A stretch of 64,000 nt of DNA from Acidobacteriota bacterium (GCA_965217775.1 CBDCJH010000002.1:1312001-1376000); one strand, 5' to 3'. Positions 2,329 through 50,570 are shown, counted from the first letter of the stretch. Program-made: numbers and translations. Notes: generated by a model from the sequence alone, not told the origin.

Positions 2329-2520
2329 GGGTTTTCCCTCCCAGCGTCGTCGGGCTTGGTACCGGTTCCAAGAGACGGCGGGTGTGTTGGCGACAATAGC
2401 AGTCCCGGGTGAAAGTCGCCACGCCGGACCCGCGGACTTGGCGACCTGCCGAATCCGGGCTGCTACAATAGCGGGCTGCGATTACAGCGACTAGAGGAGT
2501 GAAACCGAGGAGAATCCGAT

Positions 2521-20960: not shown

Positions 20961-21254
20961 CAGCCCGTGACAGGAGTCCTCACGGCATTCGACCGGGTCT
21001 GCATCCCGGCGGACTGCGTTGCTCCTCGGTCACAGACTCCCGGCATGCTCCCTCAGCCCGCATTTCTCACCAGGTCGCTACCCGTATGATGAAAAAGAAC
21101 CTGTTTTTGAGCATTTACGCGAATTTGTCCAAGGGTTCTCCGGGACAGACTGCGCGCTCGTCACGCCCCCTGGTGAGAAATGCGGGCTCAGAGCGCCTTG
21201 TCCGGCGGGCGCAGCCCCGGTCTCGATGCTACGCGGGACTCCTGCCACGGGCTG
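20961..21254. mobile_element. MITE family A, copy 1, interrupted by a nested MITE
   Basis: Inverted ends AACAGCCCGTGACAGGAGTCC (20959-20979) and GGACTCCTGCCACGGGCTGTT (21236-21256), one mismatch. Body aligns with 47071-47228. Confidence 0.8.
21057..21186. mobile_element. MITE family B (130 bp) nested in MITE A
   Basis: Perfect 18-bp TIR CCCGCATTTCTCACCAGG (21057-21074 and 21169-21186) with a 5-bp direct repeat CTCAG at 21052-21056 and 21187-21191. Absent from the 47071 copy. Confidence 0.85.
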
Positions 21255-35400: not shown

Positions 35401-35530
35401 GGCGGCACGCGCCTTCGTTGAGTTGTCTCGGACCAACCAGGTCCTGGTCTTTACCTGCCACCCGACGGTGGTTGAATTATTCCAAGAGGCAGCGGGAGAG
35501 ATGAGCCCGGATTTGATCCGCGTTGGGTAG
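32408..35530 (+). CDS. YhaN-like AAA/SMC-type ATPase with internal TM hairpin
   Basis: YGPNEAGKST Walker A, long coiled coils, LSRGTREQL signature, VVDEVLVNFD, FTCH. GTGA overlap with the exonuclease. Confidence 0.9.
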   Translation: MRIQGFRIEGFGRFADHAVGPFDHPVTLIYGPNEAGKSTYLAFIRTILFGFPRRLGNQHYPPLSGGRHGGRIDLVSGDGSRYSVHRIQGRGAGPVTTTGAGGENLDERVLAQLLGHHSRDVFESVFAFTLEELHSGDLLGKSSVNRQIYSAGMGVTKLPAVMRTLQSEREALFRKGGSVNRIARTARKLGEIEARLRGIATNAAAYGRLTTRLQEVEARLVALNQIRRHGQNRLDRRRQLQDAWEDWNDLITIERQLSELPAIDDFPADGIRRLEALEERLRGARREYDSARTSVEEVKSKTTVRIEHDAIVDRTDEVRNLGRLRGAFDQSVRDLPKRQAELENYQNDLAKTLRELGPDWDQQRLDHFDLSLAVREEISRHEERLRQAREGLGRSESDLEQAQARLNEASHSVERAKEELESAPRPKYDAAGIRRRRNQIRMARVQLDRYAREAQRAADLKRQLDGVYQTGSPKAASDMKWLPVLCAAFGIALAVAGTMAGGTVLAMGMVTSLFLIGLAVYLHVRNRSDSGMAESPIAGPIRRSLEAARRRLVTIRSELDETAAEMGLRGINESVLTGAEETLDAESSRLVQWERLREVLDRGKGSLQRRAARKDEKAENVERALRRVDAAKQAWEAWLGERSLRTTFNPEAMGELRGQVELGRNQFSEVRNWRQRITAIQEDIDSYTAMVASLASSFEVEFDPGDGQAVAAAADTLIDLHGRVAQRVRDRSNAADDLRMAERELQERYQQLSDAEAEMAGLLQSGGATDAEHFRRRAERFRQRTELGERKREVGGRLQRISGPGEHLQSLEERLENTDLQSILACINEVRDELAEADEEIQTLSTERGGIRNDLDRLIGEEESSGWRMERHLLLEQIRGHAREWVIRTLVHRLLETAQNKFERERQPGVVRHAERFFGRITGGRYPQVYAPLGERTIIVTDGTGRRKSPQELSRGTREQLFLSLRFGLIRELGQRTEPLPVVVDEVLVNFDPDRALRAARAFVELSRTNQVLVFTCHPTVVELFQEAAGEMSPDLIRVG

Positions 35531-35607
35531 ATTCCGGTCAAGTTTCCACGAAGGTCGGACAGGACCAGGTTCGGCAATCAGTGGAGGGTACTGGAACAGC
35601 GGTGAAC

Positions 35608-35691
35608 GTAGGGGCACCCCTTGTGGGTGCCCGCTGTCGCTCCTTGCTGATCGGCCCGGGCAGGGCGACCACACACAAGGGTCGCCCCTAC
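35608..35691. repeat. Inverted REP doublet (REPIN-like)
   Basis: GTAGGGGCACCCCTTGTGGGTGCCC (35608-35632) faces GGGCGACCACACACAAGGGTCGCCCCTAC (35663-35691). Confidence 0.78.
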
Positions 35692-35701
35692 GCTCATTCC
35701 T

Positions 35702-35920
35702 GTGAAAACCGTGAAAACCGGGTTGACATTGGGTGTCCGCAACTTGTTCAATGTTGTTCCCGACGAGAACACAGTTGGACAGTCGCGGAGTGGGCGACTC
35801 GAAGATTCCGCTGGCAATTTGATCATCGACTCGCCGGGCATCTTCGTCTTCTCGCGCCGGTCTGCCCCGTTCGGCTTCAACGGTGGATTTCTCTACGCTC
35901 GCTACAGTGTTCGGTGGTAA
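35702..35920 (+). pseudogene. C-terminal remnant of a TonB-dependent receptor
   Basis: LTLGVRNLFNVVPD...APFGFNGGFLYARYSVRW is a typical TBDR C-terminus. No N-terminal part is present upstream. Confidence 0.7.
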
Positions 35921-35958
35921 CCAATTGCAAATGTGAACGTGGAACGGAGTTGAAGCAG

Positions 35959-36792
35959 ATGAAGAAGAAGATCGCATCTCTCGCCATTTTGGTGTTCGGA
36001 TTTCAGGGCATGGCAGCAGCCCAGGATTCCATCTATTCGGCATCCGGAGATCTCGTCTTCGCCAGCAAGTACATCTGGCGCGGGCTGCGAGCGACCAATG
36101 ACTGGAGCCTGCAGCCGGCGATGACCCTGGGAATCGGCGGCTTCTCCGCCAATGTCTGGGGGACGATGGACCTGACCGCCGTAAACCCGGGCGATGCCTT
36201 GCCGATCCAGCCTGGTGACGGGCTCAAGGGGAAGTTTTCCGAAGTCAATTACGTCTTTTCCTACGATCACTCTTTTGAAGGCGCCACGGTCAGCGCGGGC
36301 ACCATTATCTATGTCTTTCCCGAACGGTCGGCTTCGCTGCCTGGGACCACCGAGATCTACGGAGGAGTGAGCCTGGATTCGGTGCCTCTGGCTCCTTCGT
36401 TTACTCTCCATGTGGATATGGACGAGAGCCAAGCCGGCGGTGGAAGCGCCGGACTGTACTTTCTTATCGCAGCCGGACACAGTTTCCCGCTCCAGCACGA
36501 CGTCCTGACCAGTTTCGACTTGTCCGCAACCGTGTCGCTCGTAAACGCCGGGTACACTGATTTCTTTTATAGTGTGAGTTCCGGCGGTTTCCATGACGCC
36601 AATATCACGGCGACCCTTCCCTTCACCATCAACGACAACTGGTCCGCCGGGGTTTTCGTCACCTATAGCGGCCTCATCGGCCAAGCGATTCGAGACAGCC
36701 AGTTGCAGGACCCGCGGCAACCAGCGAAACCTAGCGGCGCCTATCTGGCAGATACGCTCTGGGGTGGTTTCAGCCTGAGCGTCTCGTTCTAG
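35959..36792 (+). CDS. Putative outer-membrane beta-barrel (TorF/MipA-like)
   Basis: Signal peptide MKKKIASLAIL, SKYIWRG, SLQP, EVNY, TEIYGGVS; ends GFSLSVSF. Confidence 0.7.
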   Translation: MKKKIASLAILVFGFQGMAAAQDSIYSASGDLVFASKYIWRGLRATNDWSLQPAMTLGIGGFSANVWGTMDLTAVNPGDALPIQPGDGLKGKFSEVNYVFSYDHSFEGATVSAGTIIYVFPERSASLPGTTEIYGGVSLDSVPLAPSFTLHVDMDESQAGGGSAGLYFLIAAGHSFPLQHDVLTSFDLSATVSLVNAGYTDFFYSVSSGGFHDANITATLPFTINDNWSAGVFVTYSGLIGQAIRDSQLQDPRQPAKPSGAYLADTLWGGFSLSVSF

Positions 36793-36822
36793 TCGTTGGG
36801 CGCTGAACCGAATCGTATTGCG

Positions 36823-37010
36823 ATGCAGTTACCAAGGGTTGTGTTGCGCGCCGTCAGCGGCGTTCTGGCGGCCGTGGTTCTCATCGGCATGGTGGCCGGG
36901 GCCGGGGCGCAGCCACGCCAGTCCCGCTGGTACGTGGGCGGAGGGGCCGGGGTGAACTGGCCGTCCAGGATGGAGCAGGAGGGCCACAATCTGGATACCA
37001 CCTGCTATCC
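36823..37010 (+). pseudogene. 5' half of a small outer-membrane beta-barrel gene, interrupted by the integrated element
   Basis: Signal peptide, then WYVGGGAGVNW...TTCYP. The frame runs into element DNA and stops at 37050, but continues in frame after attR. Confidence 0.8.
36999..37010 (+). repeat. attL core (CACCTGCTATCC)
   Basis: Exact 12-bp direct repeat of 46731-46742; 14/15 identical when extended (CGA versus GGA). Confidence 0.85.
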
Positions 37011-37116
37011 CGATCAGCCGCTCCTGATAATTGACCATTATGGGGGATAGCTTGGGGATTATCAAATTCTCCCCGGCCGCGGTGGATGGGGAACATGTCG
37101 AAGGGAGGACTAGAAG

Positions 37117-37542
37117 ATGAGTTGCAAAGGACGATGTTTGGTCAGAACGAAGAACCCACGAACGGCGGAGGAGTTGATAAATTTGAGGCTCGATGGCCTT
37201 TGGGTCCGAGAGTTTCTGTGGCCGATGCCAAAGGACGGCGGCAGCGCCCACATCTGCCGGTCCTGTTACAAAAAGGCAGAGGTCATGCCGCAAGACGACG
37301 ACGCCAGACGGTTACGCGAGAGAAGGCGCGCCGCAGGCGACGGTCGGCACTCTACTGGTGACAACCGGATCATCGACTTGGTATTGGGGATCTCCATGCG
37401 ACTGGAGATCTGCCGTATACCGGGTTTCGACTTCATTTACTTCTGTGAGTGGTGCGAAACTCAAGAACTTGGTCTGATCGCTGACACAGAGGCTCTGGAG
37501 CGGCTGCCGGAAGATTGCCACTTCAAGAGCATCTCCGACTGA
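37117..37542 (+). CDS. Element hypothetical protein with CxxC pairs
   Basis: GGAGGA RBS; CKGRC, CRSC and CEWC motifs. Confidence 0.55.
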   Translation: MSCKGRCLVRTKNPRTAEELINLRLDGLWVREFLWPMPKDGGSAHICRSCYKKAEVMPQDDDARRLRERRRAAGDGRHSTGDNRIIDLVLGISMRLEICRIPGFDFIYFCEWCETQELGLIADTEALERLPEDCHFKSISD

Positions 37543-38191
37543 CGCCTGCGGTGAACTAGCCCCTGTCACCGGAAAATGGTAAGGTGAGGGCCGAGTCGGA
37601 CAGGGTGCTACCACACTGGGACTTTCAAGCTAACCCCTTGCACCCTGTCCGTGTTCCATCTTCTGTCAGGGGTTCCAGATAGAATTCCCGGCAGCTTGAA
37701 AGTTCTATCTCGGGACATTTCCAACATCCTGGATAACAGCCTCAAGCCGCGTTCGTTTGCTGTGGTCCATGCGCGGGCCGGACGCTCGATCAAGGCGATC
37801 TCCAACAGCGGGATCGACGGCGTGACACGGGACCTTCAAATCACGCGCGGCAACCCCCACGCAACGGGTAAACAGGCTCGTGCCTGCCTCGAAGCTGGGT
37901 CCAGGGCCGGAGGGGTGGTGGGTACAGTGGCCACCATGGAAATGTGCTGGACTACCGCAAGCAGGCAACTCCTGAACTAGCGGGCTCAAGATCTAACAGG
38001 GAAGTCAGACGGGGAACGGTTCACGCCTCGCGCGTAGGATCTGAAGACCCCTCTGATTTTTCCGATCCGCCGTAGGCGGGGGAGGAGAAAGCAGACGGGG
38101 TTCCCTAATTGCAGTACCCAATCTTTCCCCCGGTATGGTCCTGGGGTTAGTCAAGGGAGAAGGTGTGGTCAGAGGAAAAGGAGATTGAGTC

Positions 38192-38398
38192 ATGGCTGAA
38201 ACACTGTCCACTGAATTGGAAACCCTCCTCAGGCAAGAACGCATGATTCGTGAGTTCGTGCTGTCCCTTGATGGCAGTGACTCATTCACCCGTGAGATTC
38301 GTGATTTGGCGGAGGGACACCGCGTGGAGCAACTGAAGTCAATCCGGGACAATATCGAGAAGCAGGCCCAACCTGTGGTGAAGGGTCCATGCAAATAG
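38192..38398 (+). CDS. Element hypothetical protein (68 aa, helical)
   Basis: AGGAGA upstream of ATG; co-oriented with the element operon. Confidence 0.5.
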   Translation: MAETLSTELETLLRQERMIREFVLSLDGSDSFTREIRDLAEGHRVEQLKSIRDNIEKQAQPVVKGPCK

Positions 38399-38426
38399 GC
38401 ACCAGCCTAATTGCAGGGTGTAGAAC

Positions 38427-38750
38427 ATGACGTGGCGAAAGGAGTCCGACATTGTGGACAACTGCCGACGCTGTGACGCCACCCTAAGCGATGGCTGCCT
38501 CCCTTCTCCTTGCGGCAAGCTGGAAGGCGGCTCTCAGGATTCCGGGGCCACATTGTGCCCCACGTGCCGAATGCTCTACTTCAGGGAGGCGGGAAAGCGA
38601 TCCGGCAGGATACGGCGACGGTGGCGGGAGGATCGGGATATCGGGATCGCCCACTTCAAGAAGGAGGGGATGACGAATAAACGGATTGCCGAGATTTCCG
38701 AGTGTTCCGAGCGCACTGTCTACTACGCCCTCAAGCGTCTTAACATCTGA
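38427..38750 (+). CDS. Zn-ribbon plus C-terminal HTH regulator
   Basis: CRRC...CPTC, then GMTNKRIAEISECSERTVYYALKR helix-turn-helix. Confidence 0.7.
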   Translation: MTWRKESDIVDNCRRCDATLSDGCLPSPCGKLEGGSQDSGATLCPTCRMLYFREAGKRSGRIRRRWREDRDIGIAHFKKEGMTNKRIAEISECSERTVYYALKRLNI

Positions 38751-39236
38751 TCCTGCTACAATGAACCCCGCTTGAATCCAGAGCAACCAGGTCTCCATAA
38801 CATGACCTTGGAGGCCAACCAGGGCCGGGTCCATAGCTATGCTGCGACCAGGCTCGGCCCTGATCCTTCCCTCCTTCCTTCCCATCCTAAAAAGAAGTAC
38901 CGTCACCGGTCTTTTTACTAACTTCCAAGTGTGTTGATCTTTGATCGAGGGATTCTGCACACTCGAAATCGTGAGGACTTCAATCGTCAAGCGATGGGGA
39001 CCACGGACCACGACGCCTTCCTACTGGGGGTCTGTGTTGAGACCGGAATGGATCGCGTCCATGCGAAGGCACCGTCTCCACGAGCAGACCCGGCGGATTG
39101 CCTTGCCCTTCCTGGACCGAAACCAACCCGGTGCGCCTCGTAGTCTGATGTCCACGGAAGAGGCGTGGCTGCGGCTCAAGACTGCCGACCAGCTCATCCG
39201 CAAAGGCATCACCGAGTCCAGCAATGGAGAGGCCCG

Positions 39237-39623
39237 ATGAGCGTCCGGATCGGGATGGTCAATGAGAAGGAGGTCTTGTCCTCCATCGACCGGGTCATGC
39301 CCCGCGTTGAGACGGAGCTGACCACGGCCTTGGACGACGGCTTAGTATCAGCATTGCATCACTCTGAGCGCCGTGTGCCGGAGCGCACTGGTGATCTCAA
39401 GAGCACGGGCCGAGTGACCAAAACAGAGAAGGTAGGTGGCACTATCCTACGTGCTGAGATCGGCTATGGCGGCAAGGCGGCATCGGGACGGCAGGTTAAC
39501 TACGCCATCGAGCAGCATGAGAGCGTTCACAGTTCCGGAAGGAAGTACCTGCAAACCGCTATGGAACGTGCGGATCTTCCCGGTCGACTCGACAAGGCGA
39601 TGGCGAAGGCGCTGGGACTATGA
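39237..39623 (+). CDS. HK97-gp10-like neck/tail-completion protein
   Basis: VPERTGDLKS, IGYG, NYAIEQHE and KYLQTAM pattern. Confidence 0.65.
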   Translation: MSVRIGMVNEKEVLSSIDRVMPRVETELTTALDDGLVSALHHSERRVPERTGDLKSTGRVTKTEKVGGTILRAEIGYGGKAASGRQVNYAIEQHESVHSSGRKYLQTAMERADLPGRLDKAMAKALGL

Positions 39624-39744
39624 CGGCGGCACCGGGGCACATAGTCACCTTGGGGACCCCTGTCCGGCTCGATCCGGCCCAGCCGGGCGGCGGGGTGGGG
39701 GTCAGCATCGAGTGCATGGAAAACGTTTTTACGGAGAGCCTGAA

Positions 39745-41412
39745 GTGAGCCTCCAGCGATACGAAAAGCGTCCATGTGGGTATTCGAGGTGTTCCAACCG
39801 CTTCGACGTCGTTGTGGGCCGTCGTGGGCGTCGTCGTGAGTATTGTCAGGCATCGTGCCGGGTGGCGGCCTGGAACCTGCGTAAACGGACCCATGAACCG
39901 CAGCCTGTGAAGGTGAAGGTTCCCAAGGACCCGTTCAGTGCATTGTGTTCGTGGGCGAAGGACACACTACGAATCCCTCCTGGACATCCCTTGTCCGGGC
40001 AGCCCATGTCCATTCCCAGGTTCGCCAAGCCCTTCCTCAAAGATGCGCTGGACCCTTCCAAATCCGAGTGCGCTCTGGTTTTGGGAAGGAAGAACGCAAA
40101 ATCTGCCATCTGCGCTGTGATTCTCTTGGGGTTTCTTGTGGGTCCCGTTCGGGCACATGGCTGGCGAGCGGGAATCTGTTCCATCTCCAAGGCGAAATCC
40201 AGGGAGTTGCGGGACCAGGTGGAGGACATCGCCAAGGCATCGGGACTGTCCGAAGACATCCTCTTCCGGAGATCCCCTTATCCGGGGTCCATCGAATCGA
40301 GCACCGGCAAGGTGGAGATCCTTTCAAGTGAAGGTGGTGGAGGACATTCTTCTTCCTTCGACCTTTCCATCATCGACGAAACGGGATTGCTCAAGGAGAA
40401 GGACCGGGGACTGGTCAACAGCATGAGGTCGGCGACTTCGGCGAAGGACGGCAAGGTTCTTCATCTGAGCATCTATGGAGACTCTCCTTTCATTCCGGAG
40501 TTGATCGGGATGAGGCACGAGCCCTTCATCAGCGTTCACGTTCATCAGGCGGACGAGGGTGCCCGTCTCGATGACCCGAAGCAGTGGAAGAAAGCGAATC
40601 CGGGGTTGGGGACCATCAAATCCATCTCCTACATGGAGAAGGCGGCAAGGAGGGCCATGCTCACCCCAAGCGACGAGGCCCACTTCCTGGCTCAGGACAT
40701 GAACAGGCCGGGGTCTCCGGATCGGATGATGCTTTGTTCGCCGTCGGACTGGGAACGGTGTCGGGTTCCAGTTCTTCCCCCGCGTTCGGGTCCCTGCCGC
40801 ATGGGGGTGGACCTTGGGGGCAGTTCTGCCATGACCTGCGCGGTTCTGTGGTTTCCCGACACGGGCCGCATGGAGACCTATGGAGCCCTGCCGGGGGTGC
40901 CGTCGATCAAGCACCGGCAACGGAAAGACCAATCCCGCTACGATCTCATGTGCCGATCCGGGGAGTTGCAGGTCTATGCAGGACATCGAACCGTTCCGGT
41001 GGACAAGTTCCTCCGTTACATGGCGGATGTCGTAAAGGGGGAGAATCTGGTCTCCATCGGTTCAGACCGATACCGGGATGCTGAAACGAGGCAGTTCGTC
41101 GACCAATCCGGACTCCCGTGGTTGAGGAAGTGGCTGTGGAGAGGCACGGGAGCATCGGCCACGGCGGACGGCAGCCATGACATTCGATCTTTCCAGCGTG
41201 CGGTCCTGAACCAGGAGATCAAGCACGACGGCGGCCTGATGATGTCATCGGCCATCAGTAACTCCAGCTTGAGGTTCCGGAACAACAACCCGGCCCTGGA
41301 GCGTTCTGGCCCTGGTCGAGTCGATGCCCTGCAAGCGGGAGTCATTGCCGTGGGGACCAGCACGGTCAAGGTGGCGAGATCCAGTTGGCGATACCGGGGG
41401 CGGGTTGGATGA
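39745..41412 (+). CDS. terL: Terminase large subunit with N-terminal Cys-finger extension
   Basis: Walker A variant LGRKNAKS, Walker B SIIDE, WKKANPGL, nuclease GVDLGG, SDRYR, VDALQA. N-terminal CGYSRC...YCQASC. Confidence 0.85.
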   Translation: MSLQRYEKRPCGYSRCSNRFDVVVGRRGRRREYCQASCRVAAWNLRKRTHEPQPVKVKVPKDPFSALCSWAKDTLRIPPGHPLSGQPMSIPRFAKPFLKDALDPSKSECALVLGRKNAKSAICAVILLGFLVGPVRAHGWRAGICSISKAKSRELRDQVEDIAKASGLSEDILFRRSPYPGSIESSTGKVEILSSEGGGGHSSSFDLSIIDETGLLKEKDRGLVNSMRSATSAKDGKVLHLSIYGDSPFIPELIGMRHEPFISVHVHQADEGARLDDPKQWKKANPGLGTIKSISYMEKAARRAMLTPSDEAHFLAQDMNRPGSPDRMMLCSPSDWERCRVPVLPPRSGPCRMGVDLGGSSAMTCAVLWFPDTGRMETYGALPGVPSIKHRQRKDQSRYDLMCRSGELQVYAGHRTVPVDKFLRYMADVVKGENLVSIGSDRYRDAETRQFVDQSGLPWLRKWLWRGTGASATADGSHDIRSFQRAVLNQEIKHDGGLMMSSAISNSSLRFRNNNPALERSGPGRVDALQAGVIAVGTSTVKVARSSWRYRGRVG

Positions 41413-41711
41413 AGCGGTTGCACTCTCGAGAAATGGGGCGCCTGAGACGGCGGCTTTACAAGGAGCAGCAGAACAGGTGCGCGAAGTGTGGGCTGTTGTT
41501 CTTGTTGAGGGAGATGGAGGTCCACCACGTTCAGCCACTCGCCGAGGGCGGAACCCACGACGACGATAACGTCCAGCTTTGGTGCCTGGATGACCACCAT
41601 GAGGCCACTCGATATCAGAACACCGATCCCGCCATTCGTGACCAGAAGAGAGACTGGCGGGTGTTTCTACGAACGGAAGAACAAAGAATCTTTAGGAGGG
41701 TTCGAGCATGA
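41409..41711 (+). CDS. HNH endonuclease (terminase-associated type)
   Basis: CAKC, EVHHVQPLAEGG, NVQLWCLDDH. ATGA overlaps at both ends. Confidence 0.85.
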   Translation: MKRLHSREMGRLRRRLYKEQQNRCAKCGLLFLLREMEVHHVQPLAEGGTHDDDNVQLWCLDDHHEATRYQNTDPAIRDQKRDWRVFLRTEEQRIFRRVRA

Positions 41712-42979
41712 CCACGAAACAGAAACTGGAACTCCGGCGGAGTGAAGTCAGATCCAGGCTGGCCGAGATCGCCGGTCTGGACGAGTTGACGGACGAGATC
41801 CGCACCGAGTCCAAGGCACTGGAAACCGAGTTTGCCGACTTGGAGACGAGATACAGGGCGGCTCTGCTTTCCGAGCAGGACAACGGCAAGCTGGACGAGA
41901 CCGATACCAAGGGCCGGAAGCTCCGGAGCTTGGTCAAGAGGGCATCCCTTGTGAGCTATCTCTCGGAGAGCGTGCGCCAGAACGAGGTCCGGTCCGGATC
42001 TGCGGAGGCGGAGCTCAGGTCCGAGTTGTTGGGTAAGAACGCCCAGCCCGGACAGGTCCCCCTGGCGGTGCTCGCTCCGGAGGTCGTGAAGGAACGGAAA
42101 CGGGAGACTCGCGCCACCGATACGGCTACGGATGTGGGGGCCATCGGAATTCCGAACCGGCAAAACCAGATCATCCGGAGGGTGTTCTCGCAGAGCGCCA
42201 CTTCGTTCTTGGGAATCAGAATGCCCAGCGTCGCAATCGGCGAAACGTCGTTCCCGTACCTGAGCGCCGGGGTCAGTCCTGCGATGAAGGCCAAGGGGGC
42301 GCGTGCGGATGCGGAGGCGGCCACCTTCTCGGCCGAGTCCGTTGGGCCAACCCGTCTCAGTGCCCGATACCTGTTGAGGGTCGAGGACCTGCACCGTCTG
42401 GCCGGTATGGAAAGTGCGCTCAGGGCTGATTTGCGCGGCTCCCTGAGTGAAAGCCTTGATGCCCAGACCCTTGTTGGCGACGGAGTCGCCCCGAACGTGA
42501 CCGGGTTGTTGTCTGAACTGCCTGCGGCTGCGGCAGCGGGTGCGGCGGAGTTCTCGTGGCAGGAGGCGGTGCAAGTGATCGCCGATCAGGTCGACGGAAA
42601 ATATGCCGCCGATCCGAGCATGGTCCGGATGCTCTGTGCGAGTGATTTGTACTCGAAAATGGCCATCCGATTGGTGGCGGCCTCCTCAAGCGGCTCAAGT
42701 GTGAGCGCGGCATCGAGGTACATCCAGGAAATCAGCGGCGGACTGCGAGTCAGCGCGAACATGCCAGCCGCCGACTCCAACATCTCCACGGTGCTGTTAA
42801 GTCGGATGGGACACGCCGGCGCTTTTGCCCCGATCTGGGGAAATTCGTTCGAGCTCATTCGCGACCCGTATAGCCATTCGGCCACTGGCGAGGTGGCTCT
42901 GACGGCGATCATTTTGTGGGCATTCGTGGTGCCCCGTGAAGACGTTTTCGCACTGCGGAAGCTGAGAATCGCGGTCTGA
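41708..42979 (+). CDS. Major capsid protein, HK97 fold with N-terminal coiled-coil (delta-like) domain
   Basis: 423 aa; coiled-coil N-terminus; P..LSARY, LRADLRGSL, GDGVAPNVTGL, ELIRDPYS; located in the head module. Confidence 0.8.
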   Translation: MTTKQKLELRRSEVRSRLAEIAGLDELTDEIRTESKALETEFADLETRYRAALLSEQDNGKLDETDTKGRKLRSLVKRASLVSYLSESVRQNEVRSGSAEAELRSELLGKNAQPGQVPLAVLAPEVVKERKRETRATDTATDVGAIGIPNRQNQIIRRVFSQSATSFLGIRMPSVAIGETSFPYLSAGVSPAMKAKGARADAEAATFSAESVGPTRLSARYLLRVEDLHRLAGMESALRADLRGSLSESLDAQTLVGDGVAPNVTGLLSELPAAAAAGAAEFSWQEAVQVIADQVDGKYAADPSMVRMLCASDLYSKMAIRLVAASSSGSSVSAASRYIQEISGGLRVSANMPAADSNISTVLLSRMGHAGAFAPIWGNSFELIRDPYSHSATGEVALTAIILWAFVVPREDVFALRKLRIAV

Positions 42980-42982
42980 GTC

Positions 42983-43405
42983 ATGCCGATCGGCATCTTG
43001 AGAGGTCCAGCCGGAGCCGGTAAGTCCCAGTGGTTCGACGAGAACGCCGAACCGGGCGACTTGTGGCTTGACATCACGGCAATCTGGGCCGCCGTCCGGG
43101 GTCTCGAAAGGGGTCCCGATGGTCGCTATCCGGTGCGCTTGGACGACGACCAGGGCCTACGAATGGCTGCCTATCTGAAGGCCACCGGGATCGCCTTTGC
43201 CGAGCGTGAGGGCCTGGACGGATGGGCTACGACCAGTTCATCGGCACCGGAGGCCGTGGAGCGGATTCGGGAGCAGGGGGCAACGGGTCGGGCGCAAACC
43301 ATAGATCCTGGTGAAGCCGTCGTTCGGCGCAGGCTTGCCGATCCCGACACCGGCGAGTTGGACCCTCAATGTGATTCCGCGCTGTTGCGTTGGTACAGCG
43401 TATGA
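42983..43405 (+). CDS. Small P-loop protein in the head module
   Basis: ILRGPAGAGKS Walker A, 140 aa; ATGA-coupled to the protease. Confidence 0.65.
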   Translation: MPIGILRGPAGAGKSQWFDENAEPGDLWLDITAIWAAVRGLERGPDGRYPVRLDDDQGLRMAAYLKATGIAFAEREGLDGWATTSSSAPEAVERIREQGATGRAQTIDPGEAVVRRRLADPDTGELDPQCDSALLRWYSV

Positions 43406-43851
43406 AGATTGTTACGAACGTTGAAATCCGGGAGTCGTCCAAGGGAGTCAAGCGGCTCCACGCCGTCCTCATCCAAGAGGGCCGAGCCTCCACTGGAGGC
43501 CGTTCGGAGGTGATCATACCCGGAGCAATCACATGGCCCGATGCCGGGATTTCTTTAAGGGCCGTGCATCGGGGTCCCGCCATAGGAGTGGCGCATCCGG
43601 CGAGGCATCCGAACGGGGAAATCAGGATTGCCACGTTAGCGACCGGTGCCGTGATCCAGGCTGTCGAGTCAGGCAAGACCGGCATGAGCATCGAGTTCAC
43701 GGCGCTTCGCGAGAAAACCACCAAAGGCGGAATCCGTGAGGTACAGGCTGCTTATGTGGATGCTGCCGCACTCGTGAGCAATCCCGAATATGAGCAGGGC
43801 CGGGCCGAGATCCGATCCCGGAAGCGGAGGTCACAGCTATGGCGACTCTGA
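43402..43851 (+). CDS. HK97-type prohead protease
   Basis: EVIIPGA, His in AVHRG, GMSIEF (catalytic Ser), ALVSNPEY...EIRS. Confidence 0.75.
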   Translation: MKIVTNVEIRESSKGVKRLHAVLIQEGRASTGGRSEVIIPGAITWPDAGISLRAVHRGPAIGVAHPARHPNGEIRIATLATGAVIQAVESGKTGMSIEFTALREKTTKGGIREVQAAYVDAAALVSNPEYEQGRAEIRSRKRRSQLWRL

Positions 43852-44231
43852 GCCCCTGGCCCGAAAGTGTGGGAGACCGAAACGCGGCTCTCCGTGAACT
43901 GGAACGCCATCTTAAGTATCCCGAGATCGACATCGACATCGGGGAGGAACGGGAGCGGCTGGAACTGGTCGGGGAGGCGGCTTCGGCCCTGGTCGAGCGG
44001 TACAGTCCTGGAGCTCCACAACGTATTCGGGATTTGGCCGTCGTCAGGACGTGTCAATACCTGCTTGCCCGATCCGGTGCCAGCGTGTCCAAGGTGACGG
44101 AGGAGTTGGGGGACTGGAACCACACCTTGGAATTCATGCCCAGTATGGTTTCGGCGCTCCGGGCGTCCGGATCAATGTCCCTATTGAGTCCCTTCAAGAT
44201 CCGCAGGGCGCGAAAGGTGACGGCGGCATGA
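43839..44231 (+). CDS. Head-tail connector-like protein (gp6/gp15-like)
   Basis: AASALVERY, AVVRTCQYL and SLLSPFKIRR match the connector pattern and size. Confidence 0.65.
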   Translation: MATLSPWPESVGDRNAALRELERHLKYPEIDIDIGEERERLELVGEAASALVERYSPGAPQRIRDLAVVRTCQYLLARSGASVSKVTEELGDWNHTLEFMPSMVSALRASGSMSLLSPFKIRRARKVTAA

Positions 44232-45304
44232 AGTGGCAGGGACGGGAGGTCGACTTCGGTTTACGTGAGACTCGATCCAGCGGGTACACGGACCGGTTGA
44301 CCCAGCTCCTGGTGAGTCAGGCATCCACCGTGACCGAGACCGATCCCTCCCGGACTGGCGCTCTGGAGGTCTGCGCCGGGATTTGGGGCCGCGCCTTCGC
44401 ATCCGTGAAAGTGGAGCCGCAGACGGCGGCGCAGGTGCTCTCTCCCAACGTCCTGAACTTGATCGGCCGCCAACTGATCCGACAGGGTGAAGTCCTGTTC
44501 CGGGTCCAGGTGGTCAATGGTCAGCGCGTCCTGACCCCTTCGAGCGCCTGGGATGTCTCGGGAGGCGCGGACCCGTCCACATGGAGATTCACATGCTCTT
44601 TCAGCGGACCCGACTCCGAACAGGAGGCTACGCTGGAGTGGGACGAGGTGGTTCTGCTGACCTGGGCCACCGAGCCTGGAGCGCTCTACCGGGGCCTGGG
44701 ACCGCTTGAGGTGGGAGACTTGACCGGATCCCTGTGTGGGTCCTTGGAGAAGTCCCTCAGCAGCGAAATGGCGACGCCCAACGGATACTTGCTGACGGTC
44801 CCACAAGTGGACGAAGTGCCGGATGACGAGACCGATCCACTCGAAGATATGAGGGCCGATTTGAAGGGGCTCGACGGCGGTCTTTCATTGGTCGAAACGA
44901 CTCAAGGCGGGGGCGGCGAAGGCCGGGTAGCGGCTCCGGCGCGGGATTGGGTTCCGTCCCGGCTCGGTCCGTCTCCTCCCAAGGCGTTGTGCGACCTGCG
45001 CGAGGATGTCCACAGGACGGTCTTGTCCGCCTGCGGGATCTCCCCGGCGATGGTCGGCGGGCGTTCGGACGGAACTGCAAGGCGAGAAGCCTACCGAACA
45101 TTTGCGCATCTGTCCTTGACCCCAATGGGCCGGATGGTTGCAGCGGAACTGGCGGACAAGCTGGAGATCCCTGGCCTTCGATTCAACTGGTCGAACCTGA
45201 TGGCGGGAGACATCACAGGCAAGGCGAGGGCGTTCAGGAGCTTGGTTCAGGGCGGCATGGACGTAGCGAAAGCCGCCAGCCTCTCGGGGCTGATGACGGA
45301 TTGA
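44228..45304 (+). CDS. Phage portal protein
   Basis: ALEVCAGIWGRAFAS, QLIRQGE, YRGLGPL, VLSACGISPAMV, ELADKL; 358 aa. Confidence 0.78.
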   Translation: MKWQGREVDFGLRETRSSGYTDRLTQLLVSQASTVTETDPSRTGALEVCAGIWGRAFASVKVEPQTAAQVLSPNVLNLIGRQLIRQGEVLFRVQVVNGQRVLTPSSAWDVSGGADPSTWRFTCSFSGPDSEQEATLEWDEVVLLTWATEPGALYRGLGPLEVGDLTGSLCGSLEKSLSSEMATPNGYLLTVPQVDEVPDDETDPLEDMRADLKGLDGGLSLVETTQGGGGEGRVAAPARDWVPSRLGPSPPKALCDLREDVHRTVLSACGISPAMVGGRSDGTARREAYRTFAHLSLTPMGRMVAAELADKLEIPGLRFNWSNLMAGDITGKARAFRSLVQGGMDVAKAASLSGLMTD

Positions 45305-45656
45305 CGATAAACCCGCAGACCAGGACATGACGCTGGCAGCGGGCCGTCACTTGAAGATACACAGGTGATGGAAAACTCCCCGGTCGTGGGAACGGCGGGG
45401 AGTGAGTCAGGTTGTCCATGATGAGTTCGACCTGACAACAGTGGGGCGGGTGCTTCGAACACGCCCGCCCCATCTTCCTCCCCCGCACGTAAGGGACCCT
45501 GCCCCATGGTTGGCCGGGCGTAGACTACCGGTGTCGGAGTGCACCCTACGTCCGCCACACGATTCCCTGGCCATCGGCGGCCCGTGCTGTCCTGGAGGTG
45601 TCAAAGCCATACCTGAGGACCCTCGAAACGCTCAGGCGCTCCTCTTGACTGGGCTT

Positions 45657-46640
45657 TCAGTCATCTTCCATGAACCGCGCGACGGCGTTCTTCTTGGCCC
45701 GTTCTCCCGAGACGTAATGGACGACCATCGCCGGACTTTTCCAGCCGCCGATCTCGGCAACGTCTTGCAAGCTAGCTCCCCGCCGCGTCAGTTCTTGAGC
45801 ACATCCTCTCCGCAAGGAATGGCCTCGGACTCGTTTCAACTCCACCCCGGCCTGCCGGGCGCGGACCCGGATAATGCGGCGCACGGTGTCGGTATGCAGA
45901 TCTTTGTCCAGAACGTTCGTGTTGGTGCAAGGACGGAAGAGCGGCCCGGTCTGGATTCGGGCTCTCTTGATCCACGCTCGCAGCAGCCGGGACGCGCGTT
46001 TCGTCAGGTAGCCATTACGTCCCGATCCCTGCGGGTCCGTCTTGCTCCGGCGGACGACGATCAGCGCCGATCCGTCCGCTTGAAAGGACACGTCTTCGAT
46101 TTCCAGGGCGCAGAGCTCACCGATCCGCAGGCAGCCGTCGTACATGACGCTGAGCAAGGCGGCGTCCCGGGTCCCCCAGAGCGGCCGGAACGTGGACTCG
46201 ATGATGGCCGACCCCACCATCTCCCGGACTTCATCGGCGCTCAGTCCCCGAGCCAGCTTGGTGCCCCGGTTCCAACCTTCTTTGGAGACGATACCGAGGA
46301 CTTCCTTGGTCTGCTCTCCAACCGGATCCAGCTCGTCTTTGGCCCTGGACCGCCATCTCGCGGCGTTGACGATCCCCCGGACGCTGGCCGGGGCGAGGCT
46401 GTCCGCGTCGAAGCGATGCTCGCAATACTCGGCCAGCAGGTCGTCGGTCAGATCACGACCTGCCAACCACTCGTCCAGTTTTCTCCAGACGTTTCGATAG
46501 GTTCGGCGGGAATTGGCGCTCAGCTTGCGGAGCTTGCGCCGGTAGCGGATGTCAGCCCGTGTCTGCATGACTGGTGTCCTTTCGGGTTCGGGTTCCCGTA
46601 CCGCGCGGCAGGCCGGGGTGAATTGAAGGATTCGTGCCAT
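45657..46640 (-). CDS. int: Tyrosine recombinase/integrase, Cre-like
   Basis: RDAALL...LRIGEL (R), RSKTD (K), HSLRRG (HxxR), GGWKSPAMVVHY (W, Y). GAGGAGG RBS; adjacent to attR. Confidence 0.92.
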   Translation of the reverse strand: MARILQFTPACRAVREPEPERTPVMQTRADIRYRRKLRKLSANSRRTYRNVWRKLDEWLAGRDLTDDLLAEYCEHRFDADSLAPASVRGIVNAARWRSRAKDELDPVGEQTKEVLGIVSKEGWNRGTKLARGLSADEVREMVGSAIIESTFRPLWGTRDAALLSVMYDGCLRIGELCALEIEDVSFQADGSALIVVRRSKTDPQGSGRNGYLTKRASRLLRAWIKRARIQTGPLFRPCTNTNVLDKDLHTDTVRRIIRVRARQAGVELKRVRGHSLRRGCAQELTRRGASLQDVAEIGGWKSPAMVVHYVSGERAKKNAVARFMEDD

Positions 46641-46730
46641 GTGTAACCTCCTCGGTTGCCCTCTACCTATCTCTTTCACCAAAACGAAAACGATCGAGGG
46701 CATTATTTTTTGAGGAGCGGTCTCGGAGAG

Positions 46731-46742
46731 CACCTGCTATCC
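46731..46742 (+). repeat. attR core (CACCTGCTATCC)
   Basis: Direct repeat of 36999-37010, about 90 bp upstream of the integrase start. Confidence 0.85.
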
Positions 46743-47583
46743 GGACGAGGACTGCGATCGTCTACCTGGCGGCGGACCGCCAGGCTACCGCTGGCGCTAT
46801 GATGTCGAAGGGAAGAACGGAACCGCGTACGAGTTTTCCGTCGGCCGCAGGTTCAGCCATCTCCGAGTGGAATTTTCGGTCACCCGGCAGAAGAACGACC
46901 TCGAATCGGACTTTTCCGGGATCAGCTACGTGGACGGATCCCCCATCCTCTCCATCGAAACCGACCTTCAGGCGGAAGGAAGTTCCTCGGTCGGGGATCT
47001 GATCGCCCGCACGCTGTCGTTGAACCTCTACTATGACTTTCCGATGGCGTCGAATCGCTTTGCGCCTTATCAGCCCGTGGCAAAAGTCATCACGGCATTC
47101 GACCGTCCCTGCATCCCGGCGGACGGCGTTGCGATTCGGGCACATACTCCCGGTATGCACCCGAATCGCGCCTTGTCCGGCGGGCGCAGGAACGGTCTCG
47201 GTGCTCGCGGGACTTTCACCACGGACTGTTATGTCGGCGCAGGACTGGGGGCTTCCTTTGTCGAAGTGACCGATCTGTTTTATGAGAGCTCGTACAGCGG
47301 TCCCGGCGGGCCCTACGATCCTCCCTTGGAGTTTTACTCCAGTCGGACCAACGAGAACCTGTCCGATACGATTCTGGCGAAACACCTGTACGTCGGCGTC
47401 GACTTCGGATTGAGTGAAAGGACGCTGTTGGGCGTGAAGTTGTCCCACCTGCGGATGGGGGACTTCGCGGCCACGGGGGGCTACGACTTCCATCCGATCC
47501 CGGGATTGACCAGCGAGACCCGGTTCAGCGGCATGAACCACTGGTTGCTGGGGCTCACCGTCAAGTTGTTGCTCGGCCGCTGA
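46743..47583 (+). pseudogene. 3' half of the interrupted outer-membrane beta-barrel gene (OmpW/opacity-like small barrel)
   Basis: DEDCDRLP...YEFSVGRRFSHLRVEFS, LSLNLYYDF, PY/YVGAGLG, GVKLSHLR, WLLGLTVKL. In frame with 36823 across att. Confidence 0.8.
47071..47228. mobile_element. MITE family A, copy 2, inserted in frame in the OMP gene
   Basis: Ends CAGCCCGTGGCAAAAGTC and GACTTTCACCACGGACTG; TTAT at 47067-47070 and 47229-47232; 158+4 = 162 bp = 54 codons. Confidence 0.85.
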
Positions 47584-47631
47584 CCGGCAAACACCGACCT
47601 GGAACCAATCTGGGCCGTGCCATACCCGTGG

Positions 47632-48447
47632 TCAGAGTTCCAGCTTGCCCTCGAAGACCATATCCTTGAGCTTGAACTTCTTGGCGACCTTACGACCCAT
47701 GAGCCGTGTGATGAACTCGATGTTCTTTTCCTTCACGATGATGGGGTTCGACGTGGGGCGGGGAAAGACGAAGATCAACTCGAAGCCGGACTGGCCGGTT
47801 CGCGCGTTCAGAAGATTAACCTGTTCCTTTCTCATCTGAACGGCCTGAAGAGAAATGGGCTCGCGGCCCTTGACCTTGAGGAAAGATTCGGACCTGAGGC
47901 GTTCGATGACCGCCTGCCGCCGATCGGGGGGAATCCTCGTCATGCGGGCGGGCAGTCCGGAGACGCCGATGATGAAGTAGTTCTCTTCCGGAGCCAGGAG
48001 TTCGGCCAACTCGGCCGTCGTCTCGGCCTGATCTCCGAACCGGGCTCGAGCGAATGCCTGCTTGATGGGCAGGGCGCTGTACCATCGCAGCGTCAGATTG
48101 ATGGCCGGGGGAAACCCCCGTCCCATTCCACGACCGCCAAAGCCTCGCCCCCCGCCTCGACCTCCGCCACCTCGACCTCCGCCGCCTCGACCCCCACCCG
48201 TGCCTAAGCCGCGCCCCGACCGGTTGGGCCCGTCGCGACGACCCGTGCGCATGGTGGTTCCAGTGACTCCCGGGCGCCGCTGCAAGCTCACGGTCAGCTC
48301 CTTTGCCCAGGGGGACTTGTTGAGCATCCGCATCACTTCCTTCTCGGACCAGTCGGAGTACGCGGATTCCTTCCAGAATTTACGGGGCCAGACCGGGGTC
48401 GTGGTCAGCAACAGGATGCAGGAGACAAGCAGGAACGATTTCCTCAT
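47632..48447 (-). CDS. Secreted hypothetical protein with Gly/Arg-rich segment
   Basis: Signal peptide, WSEKEV..ML..SPWAK, GGRGGG repeats, RWYSALPIKQA, KFKLKDMVFEGKLEL. Confidence 0.7.
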   Translation of the reverse strand: MRKSFLLVSCILLLTTTPVWPRKFWKESAYSDWSEKEVMRMLNKSPWAKELTVSLQRRPGVTGTTMRTGRRDGPNRSGRGLGTGGGRGGGGRGGGGRGGGRGFGGRGMGRGFPPAINLTLRWYSALPIKQAFARARFGDQAETTAELAELLAPEENYFIIGVSGLPARMTRIPPDRRQAVIERLRSESFLKVKGREPISLQAVQMRKEQVNLLNARTGQSGFELIFVFPRPTSNPIIVKEKNIEFITRLMGRKVAKKFKLKDMVFEGKLEL

Positions 48448-48482
48448 GGGCTAACCTCGTTTCTCAGGCGACGGCCACGAAT

Positions 48483-50570
48483 TCAGACCCCATCCGGAAC
48501 GATCTGGAAGTCCTCAGCCAGACGGTGCCGCTGGGATGCGGCGAAGCGCACCTCCACCACAATTCGATATTTGCCGTGGCCGAGTTGTTGCAGCGGGAGC
48601 CGTGCATTGACGCTGGACGCACTTTCCAATCCCCCAGGAAGGGCCTTCCAAACTCCTTCGTATATCTTCCCCCCCGCGGCGTTCAGAATCAAGATCCTGT
48701 ATTCCCCGTCACCGTCATCGGCGGTTTCCACCTGACCGTGCAGGTAGAGGGTTTCGTGCCGGTGAAAGCGAGCCCCGACCCGGGGAATGAGAACCCGGGC
48801 TCCGATTTCGAGGGGATTGGCGATCTCCGTCACCTGCTTGCCCGTCTTGATCCGGTAGCGGGATTGAGACGCCGATTCCTCCAGCTTTCCGGCCAACACC
48901 AGGGAGCTGGACTGAATTCTCCCGCGCGTCGGAAGGTCCAATCGATGGTCCATTTGGGACAACAGTCCCGACCGGTTGTCCCGGAGCAGCACCCGAAGCA
49001 CGTATCGACCAGGTTCCAGGACCAGAAGGTTCTGGTAGACGAAACGGGTGTCCTTCTCCCCCTCCTGGCGCCGGCGGATCTCCACCCGGTCCCGGAGCCC
49101 GGCCCGAGCCACGTCCTGCAGGTCGCGCGCCAGGATGATCACCTCCAGGTTGAGCCGTCCTGACTCGTCGAAGGACGGGAATTCGGCTCGATCGAATGCC
49201 GCCAGGACGGGAACCCGGTACCGCCCCTCGAAATCGGGGAAGTACTCCGCCGAGATCTCCACCGGGAATTCGATCTTGGGGGCACCCTCCAGGACGGTCT
49301 GGAGCAGCTTGAATTCCTTTTCGGGAGTGCTCAGGGCGGCGTAGGACTTGTCCGCATAGTAACCCTGGCGGTAGGCCAGACGGATCCTGGGGCGGCTGAC
49401 GGTTACCTCGACCTTTCGGAACCGTCCGTCGCTGGGAGGAGTGGGAGCGTAGTAGCCGAGCAGGTAGTAGTGGCTCGAGTCCTCCTGGGCTCTGCGGAAG
49501 ATCTTTCCCAGGTCGTTGTCGTCCAGGAGCACCGCACCGCCGGTTTCGGCGGCCAGGGTGATCAGCCCCTCCCGCGACTGACTGAGCCGGACCAGTTGGT
49601 TGAGGTCCGCTCGGCCCGTGAAGATGCCTTGTCCTCCTCCCGAGCGGTGGGCACCGCCCCCGGGGGCAAGGGCCACCAGTCCCCGGGCGTCGACGGAATA
49701 GATGCTGATATTGGCCCGATTGCAGAGATCGGCGGTCCAGCGGAGCTGGTCGTCGTTCTCGATGCCCCGGCTGGTGAGTCCGGCAGAGAAGTACACCAGG
49801 GCCTTCCGTCCGGGAACGTCGCGGAAGGCATCGGCGATGGCCTGAATGGCGCTGAGCTGATGGTTGCTCTCGAACAGAGCGAATTCGGTCTCGTCGGCCA
49901 GAAACTCCCCGTCGGCGGCCGCATCCGAATCTTCATCCGGCAGCGAGACGTCGGTTTCCCGATCCTGTTGGGAGAGGCGTCCCAGAGCCTGGGACAATTC
50001 CCTGGAATCGGACGTGAAATCCACCAGAAGCTCGAGTCCCTGGTCGTATGCCAGGACGGCAACGGCGTCTTGCGGCGTCATTTCCCGGTCCAGGAATCGG
50101 AGAGCCGACTCGCGCATCATCCGCGAGTCCTGGATGTTGGCGTTGGAGAAGTTGAAGAGGAGGATCAGGTATCGCTTCTCCGGCGTGGCCGGAAAGTCCG
50201 ACTCCGGTTCGGAAGTAACTGTCGTCGGAGGAGGCTCGGGCAGGCCCCGGCGGACGGTGACGCGCTCGCTGGTGAGCGGCAGGAAGACTTCTTGGAAGTA
50301 CCCGATCTTCTGGGAGATTCCCTCCTCAAGAAGGGTAAAATCCTCCGATTTCAGATCCCGGACGGGCCGGCCCTCGGAATCCCGGACCTGGACGTCCACC
50401 AGAATCAGGTTGGTCCTCACGCGGAAGCGGACGGGGGAGTCCTGGCTCCACAGGCAGTGCCAAGCCAAAACGCAGACCATGGCGGAAGAAACCATCCGGG
50501 CCGGGTGCCGGGCTTTGGGCGCGGGCCGTCTCGGAAGATCCCTGTTTCCAGTTCTGGCAAGTAGCTTCAT
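48483..50570 (-). CDS. Acidobacteria-type VWA domain protein
   Basis: LILVDVQVRD..GRPVRDLKSEDFTLLEEG, GRKALVYFSAG, IYSVDARGL, LAAETGG, YYLLGY, DGRFRKVEV. Confidence 0.85.
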   Translation of the reverse strand: MKLLARTGNRDLPRRPAPKARHPARMVSSAMVCVLAWHCLWSQDSPVRFRVRTNLILVDVQVRDSEGRPVRDLKSEDFTLLEEGISQKIGYFQEVFLPLTSERVTVRRGLPEPPPTTVTSEPESDFPATPEKRYLILLFNFSNANIQDSRMMRESALRFLDREMTPQDAVAVLAYDQGLELLVDFTSDSRELSQALGRLSQQDRETDVSLPDEDSDAAADGEFLADETEFALFESNHQLSAIQAIADAFRDVPGRKALVYFSAGLTSRGIENDDQLRWTADLCNRANISIYSVDARGLVALAPGGGAHRSGGGQGIFTGRADLNQLVRLSQSREGLITLAAETGGAVLLDDNDLGKIFRRAQEDSSHYYLLGYYAPTPPSDGRFRKVEVTVSRPRIRLAYRQGYYADKSYAALSTPEKEFKLLQTVLEGAPKIEFPVEISAEYFPDFEGRYRVPVLAAFDRAEFPSFDESGRLNLEVIILARDLQDVARAGLRDRVEIRRRQEGEKDTRFVYQNLLVLEPGRYVLRVLLRDNRSGLLSQMDHRLDLPTRGRIQSSSLVLAGKLEESASQSRYRIKTGKQVTEIANPLEIGARVLIPRVGARFHRHETLYLHGQVETADDGDGEYRILILNAAGGKIYEGVWKALPGGLESASSVNARLPLQQLGHGKYRIVVEVRFAASQRHRLAEDFQIVPDGV

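Follow-up and report, generated by a model that had tools for sequence, protein, structure and literature searches.

The 64,000-nucleotide stretch of DNA analysed here, from an Acidobacteriota bacterium (GCA_965217775.1, CBDCJH010000002.1:1312001-1376000; hereafter the window), carries the gene of a beta-barrel outer-membrane protein (OMP) in three pieces, separated by a phage-like island and by a miniature inverted-repeat transposable element (MITE). The island sits between codons 63 and 64 (P63|D64) of the gene, and a 12-bp sequence, CACCTGCTATCC, occurs at both of its ends. The locus is arranged as follows, with positions counted from the first nucleotide of the window and P0002 denoting a public protein of the same family:

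36823-37010, + strand: OMP gene 5' fragment, residues 1-63, comprising the signal peptide, the first strand and the start of loop 1; one mismatch to P0002, and matching the orthologues in genomes G006 and G005.
36999-37010: attL copy of the 12-bp core CACCTGCTATCC.
37011-46730, 9,720 bp: phage-like island with a head module only, present in a single copy in the genome.
45657-46640, - strand: Cre-like tyrosine recombinase, 327 aa from an ATG behind a GGAGG motif (PF00589, E 1.5e-22; phrog_1, E 1.8e-26).
46731-46742: attR copy of the 12-bp core CACCTGCTATCC.
46732-47070, + strand: OMP gene middle fragment, residues 60-172; one mismatch to P0002.
47071-47228, + strand: MITE of 158 bp with 18-bp imperfect terminal inverted repeats and a target duplication, TTAT, at 47067-47070 and 47229-47232.
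47233-47583, + strand: OMP gene 3' fragment, residues 173-288 and stop; four mismatches to P0002.

The 5' piece starts with the ATG at 36823, reads MQLPR...HNLDTTCYP, and then runs through 13 unrelated island-encoded codons to a TAG at 37048-37050. The 3' frame is open from 46732, where it starts with TCYPDEDCDRLPGG, to the TGA at 47581-47583, and another TGA lies just upstream of 46732 in island sequence. The open reading frames (ORFs) were recomputed on the window and agree in coordinates and frames with an earlier note on this DNA, which had described an integrase-bearing element interrupting an OMP gene that integration had not regenerated; the frames, the stops, including the TAG that ends the 5' ORF, and the syntenic empty-site orthologues described below all bear out this description. 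As was also claimed, the OMP frame would be made whole if the island were excised precisely at the 12-bp repeat: 188 nt and 841 nt add up to 343 codons, i.e., a 342-aa joined ORF. The joined frame is indeed unbroken, but 54 of its 342 residues are the MITE and its target duplication, and the intact protein has 288 aa. Since 225 codons are lost from the 5' piece, which ends in 13 foreign ones, and the 3' piece is left without a start or signal peptide, the gene is knocked out.

The 12-mer spans the last base of codon 59, the codons T60-C61-Y62, and two bases of P63. It occurs in exactly two copies in the 64-kb window. With at most one mismatch on either strand, 0.27 matches are expected, and at least two were obtained in 4 of 100 shuffles; the frequency of the repeat alone is therefore only mildly unusual, and the location of the two copies is decisive.

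The 3' piece was searched against 41 related genomes, and contiguous OMP orthologues were found in two species of the same genus, namely G006 (locus L002, 291 aa) and G005 (locus L003, 288 aa). Both ORFs cross the junction without interruption, reading ...HNLDTTCYPDEDCGLLPGG... and ...HNLDTTCYPGEDCDRLPGG..., respectively. Their neighbours are those of the window, with a MipA-like OMP gene upstream and the gene of a Gly/Arg-rich 270-aa protein downstream on the other strand. By BLASTN, L002 aligns with the window in three segments (1-1178 on 35836-37013, 1158-1503 on 46725-47070, and 1500-3351 on 47229-49066). The empty site of G006 reads ...GGATAC CACCTGCTATCC GGACGAG..., which is exactly the attB sequence predicted in the earlier note, and the same core is present in G005.

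In a collection of 5.8 billion proteins, 79 matches were obtained, 78 of them from the OMP family and mostly full-length at about 290 aa; both halves consequently belong to one protein, rather than to unrelated families. One public protein, P0002 (288 aa), is identical to the three pieces of the window at 282 of 288 residues, with mismatches at positions 48, 170, 226, 245, 250, and 272. All 72 aligned homologues have C61, P63, and C67, and 70 of them also have Y62. The Cys pair that the earlier note saw reunited by the join is therefore real and a hallmark of the family, and the 12-bp crossover core coincides with the family-invariant Cys-Tyr-Pro codons.

The second interruption, which the earlier note had missed, is of a different kind. 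Together with one copy of the duplication (47071-47232), the MITE contributes 162 bp, i.e., 54 codons without a stop, in frame at codon 172/173, and subtracting these from the 342 residues gives the native length of 288 aa. Residues of approximately 108-170 of the 3' piece have hundreds of matches, both in the source genome and in those of other members of the genus; the matches fall in every frame and frequently contain stops, and the G006 and G005 orthologues are without this stretch. In the source genome, G000, the MITE returns 266 BLAST segments, of which 213 are near full length with a median identity of 94.9%; a perfect 4-bp target duplication flanks 154 of these 213 copies, with TTAA, CTAG, and ATAT being the commonest. 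The element is thereby short, bounded by inverted ends, flanked by a target duplication and present in many copies, as is typical of a MITE. All three frames of one orientation are free of stops in 207, 205, and 193 of the 213 copies, so that the element reads through on landing in a gene. A preference for coding regions was considered and rejected, as open frames of 250 aa or more contain 46% of the copies but 84.5% of 2000 random sites. In the account drawn on here (PMC10969869), Rickettsia palindromic elements are described as in-frame intragenic insertions in protein-coding genes; they resemble this MITE in being approximately 150 bp long, free of stops in the frame used, and inserted in frame within a coding gene. 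Compared with them, the present MITE is depleted in long ORFs and has classical inverted repeats and 4-bp duplications. Elsewhere in the window, a diverged copy of approximately 84% identity lies at 20961-21254, in two segments with about 140 bp extra between them.

Between the recombinase gene and attR lie 90 bp. By sequence, its best solved relatives are Cre variants (E 3e-13), and its segments LRIGE, RSKT, GHSLRRG, GGW, and HY align with segments of Cre, with the R, K, H-x-x-R, W, and Y positions matched; we take these residues to have the catalytic roles assigned to them in the Cre literature. All six catalytic positions of Cre of phage P1 are aligned, but the match is remote and confined to the catalytic half (residues 118-326), and whereas Cre uses a symmetric 34-bp site, the present one is an intragenic identity of 12 bp. 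For Cre itself, recombination proceeds in either direction and needs no accessory factor. A short dyad, GGATA ... TATCC, with a centre of 8 bp, overlaps the core of the natural empty site and may be a candidate binding site for the recombinase. In addition, an 8-bp perfect inverted repeat (AGGAGCGG / CCGCTCCT) lies inside the island ends at 46713-46720 and 37018-37025, with 11 of 13 positions matched when extended; in a circular form, its two copies would stand 10 and 7 bp from the core, and they are possible binding sites for the recombinase or an accessory protein.

At the homologous place in 80 loci of the OMP family, the 12-mer is identical in 6 and differs by one base in 16, two in 20, three in 25, four in 11, and five in 2. 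The identical loci include L051 from a metagenome-assembled genome (MAG) of Nitrospinota, L097 and L099 from MAGs of Alphaproteobacteria, and L109 from a Gammaproteobacteria MAG. As for the integrase itself, no relative was found in genome contigs, and metagenome contigs gave one weak 35-residue match, L033; across 76 genomes of the order, only matches of at most 40% identity were obtained, all within the genus. Neither an OMP-family fragment nor a tRNA was found in the flanks of any of the 20 other integrase loci (L014-L033).

Eight sequencing runs hold the stretch, none of them RNA, and four were examined: X1, X3, and X4 from one study and X5 from another. The depths of their contigs over the locus are as follows:

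X1: left flank 77.8, right flank 48.4; island 15.6 and 12.9.
X3: left flank 56.4, right flank 49.3; island 5.95-9.54.
X4: left flank 45.2, right flank 31.6; island 4.6-8.3.
X5: left flank 89.2, right flank 77.7; island 2.2-6.1, with some island bins without cover.

In all four runs, the flanks are approximately 3-40 times deeper than the island, and most genomes therefore do not keep it in episomal form but are simply without it. Left-flank contigs end at 37010 where they reach that far, and right-flank contigs start at 46731 in all four runs, while the contigs of the island begin at 36981 and reach 46760, overlapping the flanks by 30 nt. Such overlaps probably mark a branch of the de Bruijn graph (k = 31) between the occupied and the empty site. 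Simultaneously, contigs cross attL from the island side with 0 mismatches (36981 onward) in X1, X3, and X4, and cross attR (up to 46760) in X1 and X3. Both junctions are hence crossed by unbroken island contigs, whereas an attP circle of similar depth would force a break there, and neither the joint 37010->46743 nor the back-joint 46730->37011 occurs among the 15 of 18 joints listed. The right-flank contig also skips 47067-47228 in all four runs (joint 47066->47229, 162 nt skipped) and carries single-nucleotide polymorphisms relative to the window, whose base at 47393 is found in no contig. The dominant allele is therefore without the MITE and presumably without the island as well, and the window represents a minority haplotype.

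The distribution of the OMP gene was examined with the MITE-free P0002 as the query against 15 genomes of the family at E <= 1e-10. Three separate pieces were recovered in G000, full-length genes in G005 and G006, and a 45%-identical homologue in one genome of a sister genus (G011), and no match was obtained at this threshold in G001, G002, G004, G007, and G008, which are 90-99% complete. In G003, only residues 5-74 are present, at the syntenic locus (L114 5057-5416); the fragment reads through the junction (…ATCDPDGDCDRL…) with the Tyr of the CYP motif changed, and breaks off just before the downstream gene. It is therefore a deletion remnant, and G003 represents an independent loss of the same OMP gene. 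Among the eight other species of the genus, the gene is intact in two, a remnant in one, and not found in five. Across 401 sampled genomes of the phylum, 19 have any match, and pieces kilobases apart occur in G000 only; at G379:C1:441761-442646, the homologue is matched in two parts, one covering residues 2-130 and the other 146-287, with 47 nt between them, which could reflect a divergent loop or a frameshift. From 216 relatives in named genomes, 80 loci were kept by score, a choice that disfavours split genes, and every one of them crosses residue 63. The family, with its CYPxxxC loop, is found in MAGs labelled Acidobacteriota, Latescibacterota, Nitrospinota, Nitrospirales, Alpha- and Gammaproteobacteria, Binatia, and Longimicrobiales, at 40-52% identity in at least seven phylum- or class-level groups other than that of the window, and some MAG names resemble, as we take it, sets associated with marine invertebrates. 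Such a scattered occurrence is suggestive of horizontal transfer between organisms that share a habitat. Given such presence and absence across the genus and across phyla, the OMP gene is accessory, and it is dispensable in the genus.

Taken together, it is likely that an accessory OMP gene has been hit twice by mobile DNA, once by an island that acts as an insertional knock-out and once by a MITE, and that the locus is a presence/absence polymorphism of which the window holds the minority haplotype. The 9.72-kb island would have entered by site-specific recombination through its own Cre-like tyrosine recombinase, with a 12-bp recombination core that lies on the Cys-Tyr-Pro codons in a probably extracellular loop, the first of the long ones. 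The OMP gene is thereby knocked out, as nothing in the island replaces the lost 225 codons. The 158-bp MITE with its 4-bp duplication would have been inserted independently and sits in frame at codon 172/173. The two sister species carry the gene uninterrupted, and most co-occurring genomes would do so as well. Furthermore, the island, as a putative head-only packaging element with a terminase large subunit (TerL), an HNH endonuclease, a capsid protein, a protease-like protein, and a portal protein, would borrow its tails from another phage. The anatomy of the locus, the empty sites, and the minority status of the haplotype are observations, while the way of integration, the topology of the loop, and a life as a satellite are inferred.

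Several points weigh against this interpretation. All the read evidence consists of Logan contigs, in which rare variants are dropped and each contig has one depth figure. No contig spanning the empty site is among those listed, where such a contig would be approximately 48 nt long, and the empty-site allele in the same population is deduced from the break points, the depths, and P0002. It is the assembly that places the island and the MITE on the same molecules, and with a contamination estimate of 7.47% for the genome, a mixing of strains is possible. The recombinase, being Cre-like and with no obvious arm-binding domain, might in principle excise the island readily. In addition, no primase or replicase, head-tail connector, or clear small terminase was recognised in the island, which leaves the satellite interpretation incomplete.

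The placement of the core within a surface loop derives from a structural model. The OMP fragments of the window fall below the Pfam cut-offs (OMP_b-brl, E 0.01 and 0.05), and PF13505 and/or PF01617 are precomputed on most homologues. The earlier note had proposed an AlphaFold model of the protein; with the MITE-free P0002 and a 72-sequence alignment, AlphaFold2 gave a barrel of about eight strands with a mean pLDDT of 89.6 and a pTM of 0.80. The model contains a signal-peptide helix (residues 5-23) and, after merging DSSP segments 1-2 residues apart, eight strands of approximately 23 residues each (34-56, 78-100, 103-125, 139-161, 169-194, 209-231, 236-255, and 265-286), joined by alternating long (57-77, 126-138, 195-208, and 256-264) and short (101-102, 162-168, and 232-235) links. 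In Foldseek searches against the PDB, the model matched the Legionella Dot/Icm porin III (E 6e-8, TMt 0.61), NspA (TMt 0.71), the transmembrane (TM) domain of OmpA (0.67), OmpW (0.67), and OprG (0.58), and the 10-stranded OmpT/Pla were poorer matches than the small barrels. A signal peptide, an even number of antiparallel strands, and a fold match to solved barrels are thus all present in the P0002 model, as in small outer-membrane beta-barrels. The resemblance to the small 8-stranded barrels (OmpA TM domain, OmpW/OprG, and NspA; PF13505) lies in the signal peptide, the eight long antiparallel strands, the alternating links, and TMt values of 0.56-0.71, but the identity to the solved chains is 11-16%, and the present protein has strands of about 23 residues and a disulfide-type CYPxxxC loop. 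By standard small-barrel topology, the P63|D64 junction probably falls in the first and longest loop (57-77), which is expected to be surface-exposed, and the MITE probably lies at the start of strand 5, beside a short periplasmic turn.

This topology leads to an addition to the favoured interpretation, rather than to a replacement of it, in which the insertion would be adaptive: the OMP would be the receptor of the particles of the island, of its helper, or of another phage, and its loss would block superinfection. The cut in the longest barrel loop of the model, the coincidence of the core with the most conserved motif of the family, and the persistence of the carriers as a minority in two studies are consistent with such a role. 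However, it is a speculation, and the carriers are in the minority wherever they are seen. Since the gene has been lost without any island in other species, its loss requires no phage-related benefit, and we regard the adaptive explanation as unlikely.

The earlier note had suggested a reversible genetic switch, a form of active lysogeny in which the island would excise precisely under some condition, restore the OMP, be kept as an episome, and toggle the surface protein through re-integration. Precise excision would restore both the frame and the invariant Cys pair, the island ORFs are open and tightly packed, and the recombinase is intact and, by analogy with Cre, may act in both directions without accessory factors. 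The skin element in sigK undergoes regulated excision. Precedents are also provided by phi10403S in comK (PMC7397523), the Sa3int phages in hlb (PMC6597384), and SPbeta in spsM (PMC5499854), for which regulated excision is reported as demonstrated in the descriptions drawn on here. Like these elements, the island is integrated site-specifically in an ORF at a short core without regenerating the gene, and precise excision would rebuild it; unlike in them, no sign of excision was found here in the contigs, fewer genomes carry the element than are without it, the interrupted gene is an accessory one for an OMP, and a second insertion is present in it. The contig data do not support the suggestion: the low depth of the island in all four runs indicates that most genomes are without it, and neither the back-joint, among the joints listed, nor the break at the junctions of island contigs that an attP form of comparable depth should cause was observed, although a rare form could be missed in contigs. 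Moreover, a gene restored in this haplotype would retain the 54-aa MITE insert, which the majority allele is without, and the gene is dispensable, being missing or decayed in six of the eight other species of the genus. Among the 401 genomes of the phylum and the 80 kept loci, no further gene of the OMP family was found interrupted by an insert of kilobase size. A switch at this locus is accordingly quite improbable.

An assembly artefact, in which mis-joined strains would have misplaced the island, the MITE, or both, finds some basis in the contamination estimate and in a majority allele that differs by single-nucleotide polymorphisms and is without the MITE, but is highly improbable, with independent short-read contigs crossing attL (X1, X3, and X4) and attR (X1 and X3), an exact 12-bp repeat bounding the insert with an integrase at one end, and a perfect 4-bp target duplication around the MITE.

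The recognised genes of the island, in an accessory OMP gene interrupted by two mobile elements, are all on the + strand except for the recombinase, and its ORFs are open and closely packed:

37117-37542, + strand: ORF of 141 aa with coding-like GC content at third codon positions (GC3); no Pfam, PHROG, NCBIfam, or PADLOC match.
37651-37980, + strand: ORF of 109 aa, function unassigned.
38427-38750, + strand: small helix-turn-helix protein, 107 aa (PF13384 HTH_23, E 4.6e-6, above the cut-off; phrog_3855, E 6e-4).
38941-39240, + strand: ORF of 99 aa, function unassigned.
39165-39623, + strand: ORF of 152 aa directly upstream of TerL, with coding-like GC3 and a weak match to phrog_31989 (unknown function).
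39436-41412, + strand: TerL (phrog_9, E 1.4e-45; PF20441 TerL nuclease, E 1.3e-9); the coordinates are those of the longest ORF, and the real start may be further downstream.
41385-41711, + strand: HNH endonuclease, 108 aa (phrog_144, E 1.5e-10, and 15 more PHROG families, 13 of them annotated as HNH endonuclease).
41708-42979, + strand: HK97-type major capsid protein, 423 aa (TIGR01554, E 6.7e-9, above the cut-off; PF05065, E 3.3e-6).
42983-43405, + strand: ORF of 140 aa, weakly similar to a portion of a 'terminase small subunit' PHROG (phrog_4581, E 1e-7); no Pfam match above the cut-off.
43390-43851, + strand: ORF of 153 aa, possibly prohead serine protease-like, a lead from an ESM Atlas feature score of 0.96 with 185 features shared with a PF04586 Peptidase_S78 cluster; no hidden Markov model match.
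43839-44231, + strand: ORF of 130 aa, function unassigned.
44051-45304, + strand: portal protein (PF04860, E 3.1e-12, 46.8 bits against a cut-off of 39.1).

The helix-turn-helix protein is a candidate regulator or excision factor, and the ORF upstream of TerL is, by its position, a small-terminase candidate. A minus-strand ORF at 38005-38394 and a plus-strand ORF at 45402-46646 were dropped for poor codon-position GC or for lying antisense to the integrase. The capsid protein is the sole PF05065 match in the whole genome, which contains neither a second capsid gene of this family nor a match to the PF10145 tape-measure family, and no relative of the capsid protein was found among the viral contigs searched. 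Within the island, no tail, lysis, or replication family was detected with Pfam, PHROGs, and NCBIfam; PADLOC on eight island ORFs gave no match, and a relaxed Pfam search on seven gave none above the cut-off. No tRNA lies within 34000-50000.

From this gene content, the island looks like a head-only packaging element that would need the tails of another phage. A degraded prophage is the alternative, and the compact open ORFs speak mildly against decay. Phage-inducible chromosomal islands of the capsid-forming type (cfPICIs), as they are defined in the parts of PMC10085698 used here, are similar in their length of approximately 10 kb, in their integrase, regulator, TerL, HNH, capsid, and portal genes, and in that no tail or holin gene was found. 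The present island differs from cfPICIs as described there in that neither a primase-replicase nor an AlpA/MerR-type regulator nor a head-tail adaptor/connector could be recognised in it; its only candidate regulator is a generic HTH_23 protein. Its gene order, TerL-HNH-capsid-x-protease-like-x-portal, is unusual, with three small ORFs between the capsid and the portal genes (one protease-like, one weakly TerS-like, and one unassigned), and no helper phage is known. According to the same source, as far as it is used here, satellites are found mostly in Proteobacteria and Firmicutes, and cfPICIs in those two phyla, while the host phylum in the present case is Acidobacteriota. The island could represent a kind of head-only satellite undescribed in Acidobacteriota, with its recombinase aimed at the Cys-Tyr-Pro codons of a cross-phylum OMP family, although we give this proposal little credence. 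If it were true, one element could integrate in very different hosts and remove a surface protein that is possibly its own receptor or that of its helper, and a head-only satellite could leave without an excision factor.

The locus belongs to known classes, namely intragenic integration and intragenic MITE insertion, and opens no long-standing question. It nevertheless provides a clean natural case of intragenic site-specific integration in an uncultured Acidobacteriota, with empty-site controls in sister species and a near-identical public protein. It also shows how two different mobile elements make a surface protein vary between strains. With a core placed on the codons that the target family conserves best, the logic of tRNA targeting would be applied to a protein motif, and the island may be a satellite without tails in a phylum other than those from which satellites are mostly known. 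A literature search for prophages inside OMP genes returned nothing relevant, which is not proof that none is in print.

Upstream of the OMP gene, between the genes of an SMC-like ATPase and the MipA-like OMP, a repeat of approximately 90 bp with two GC-rich hairpins is located at 35606-35695, one of about 40 such copies in the genome; it accounts for the elevated read depth and the odd joints near this position.

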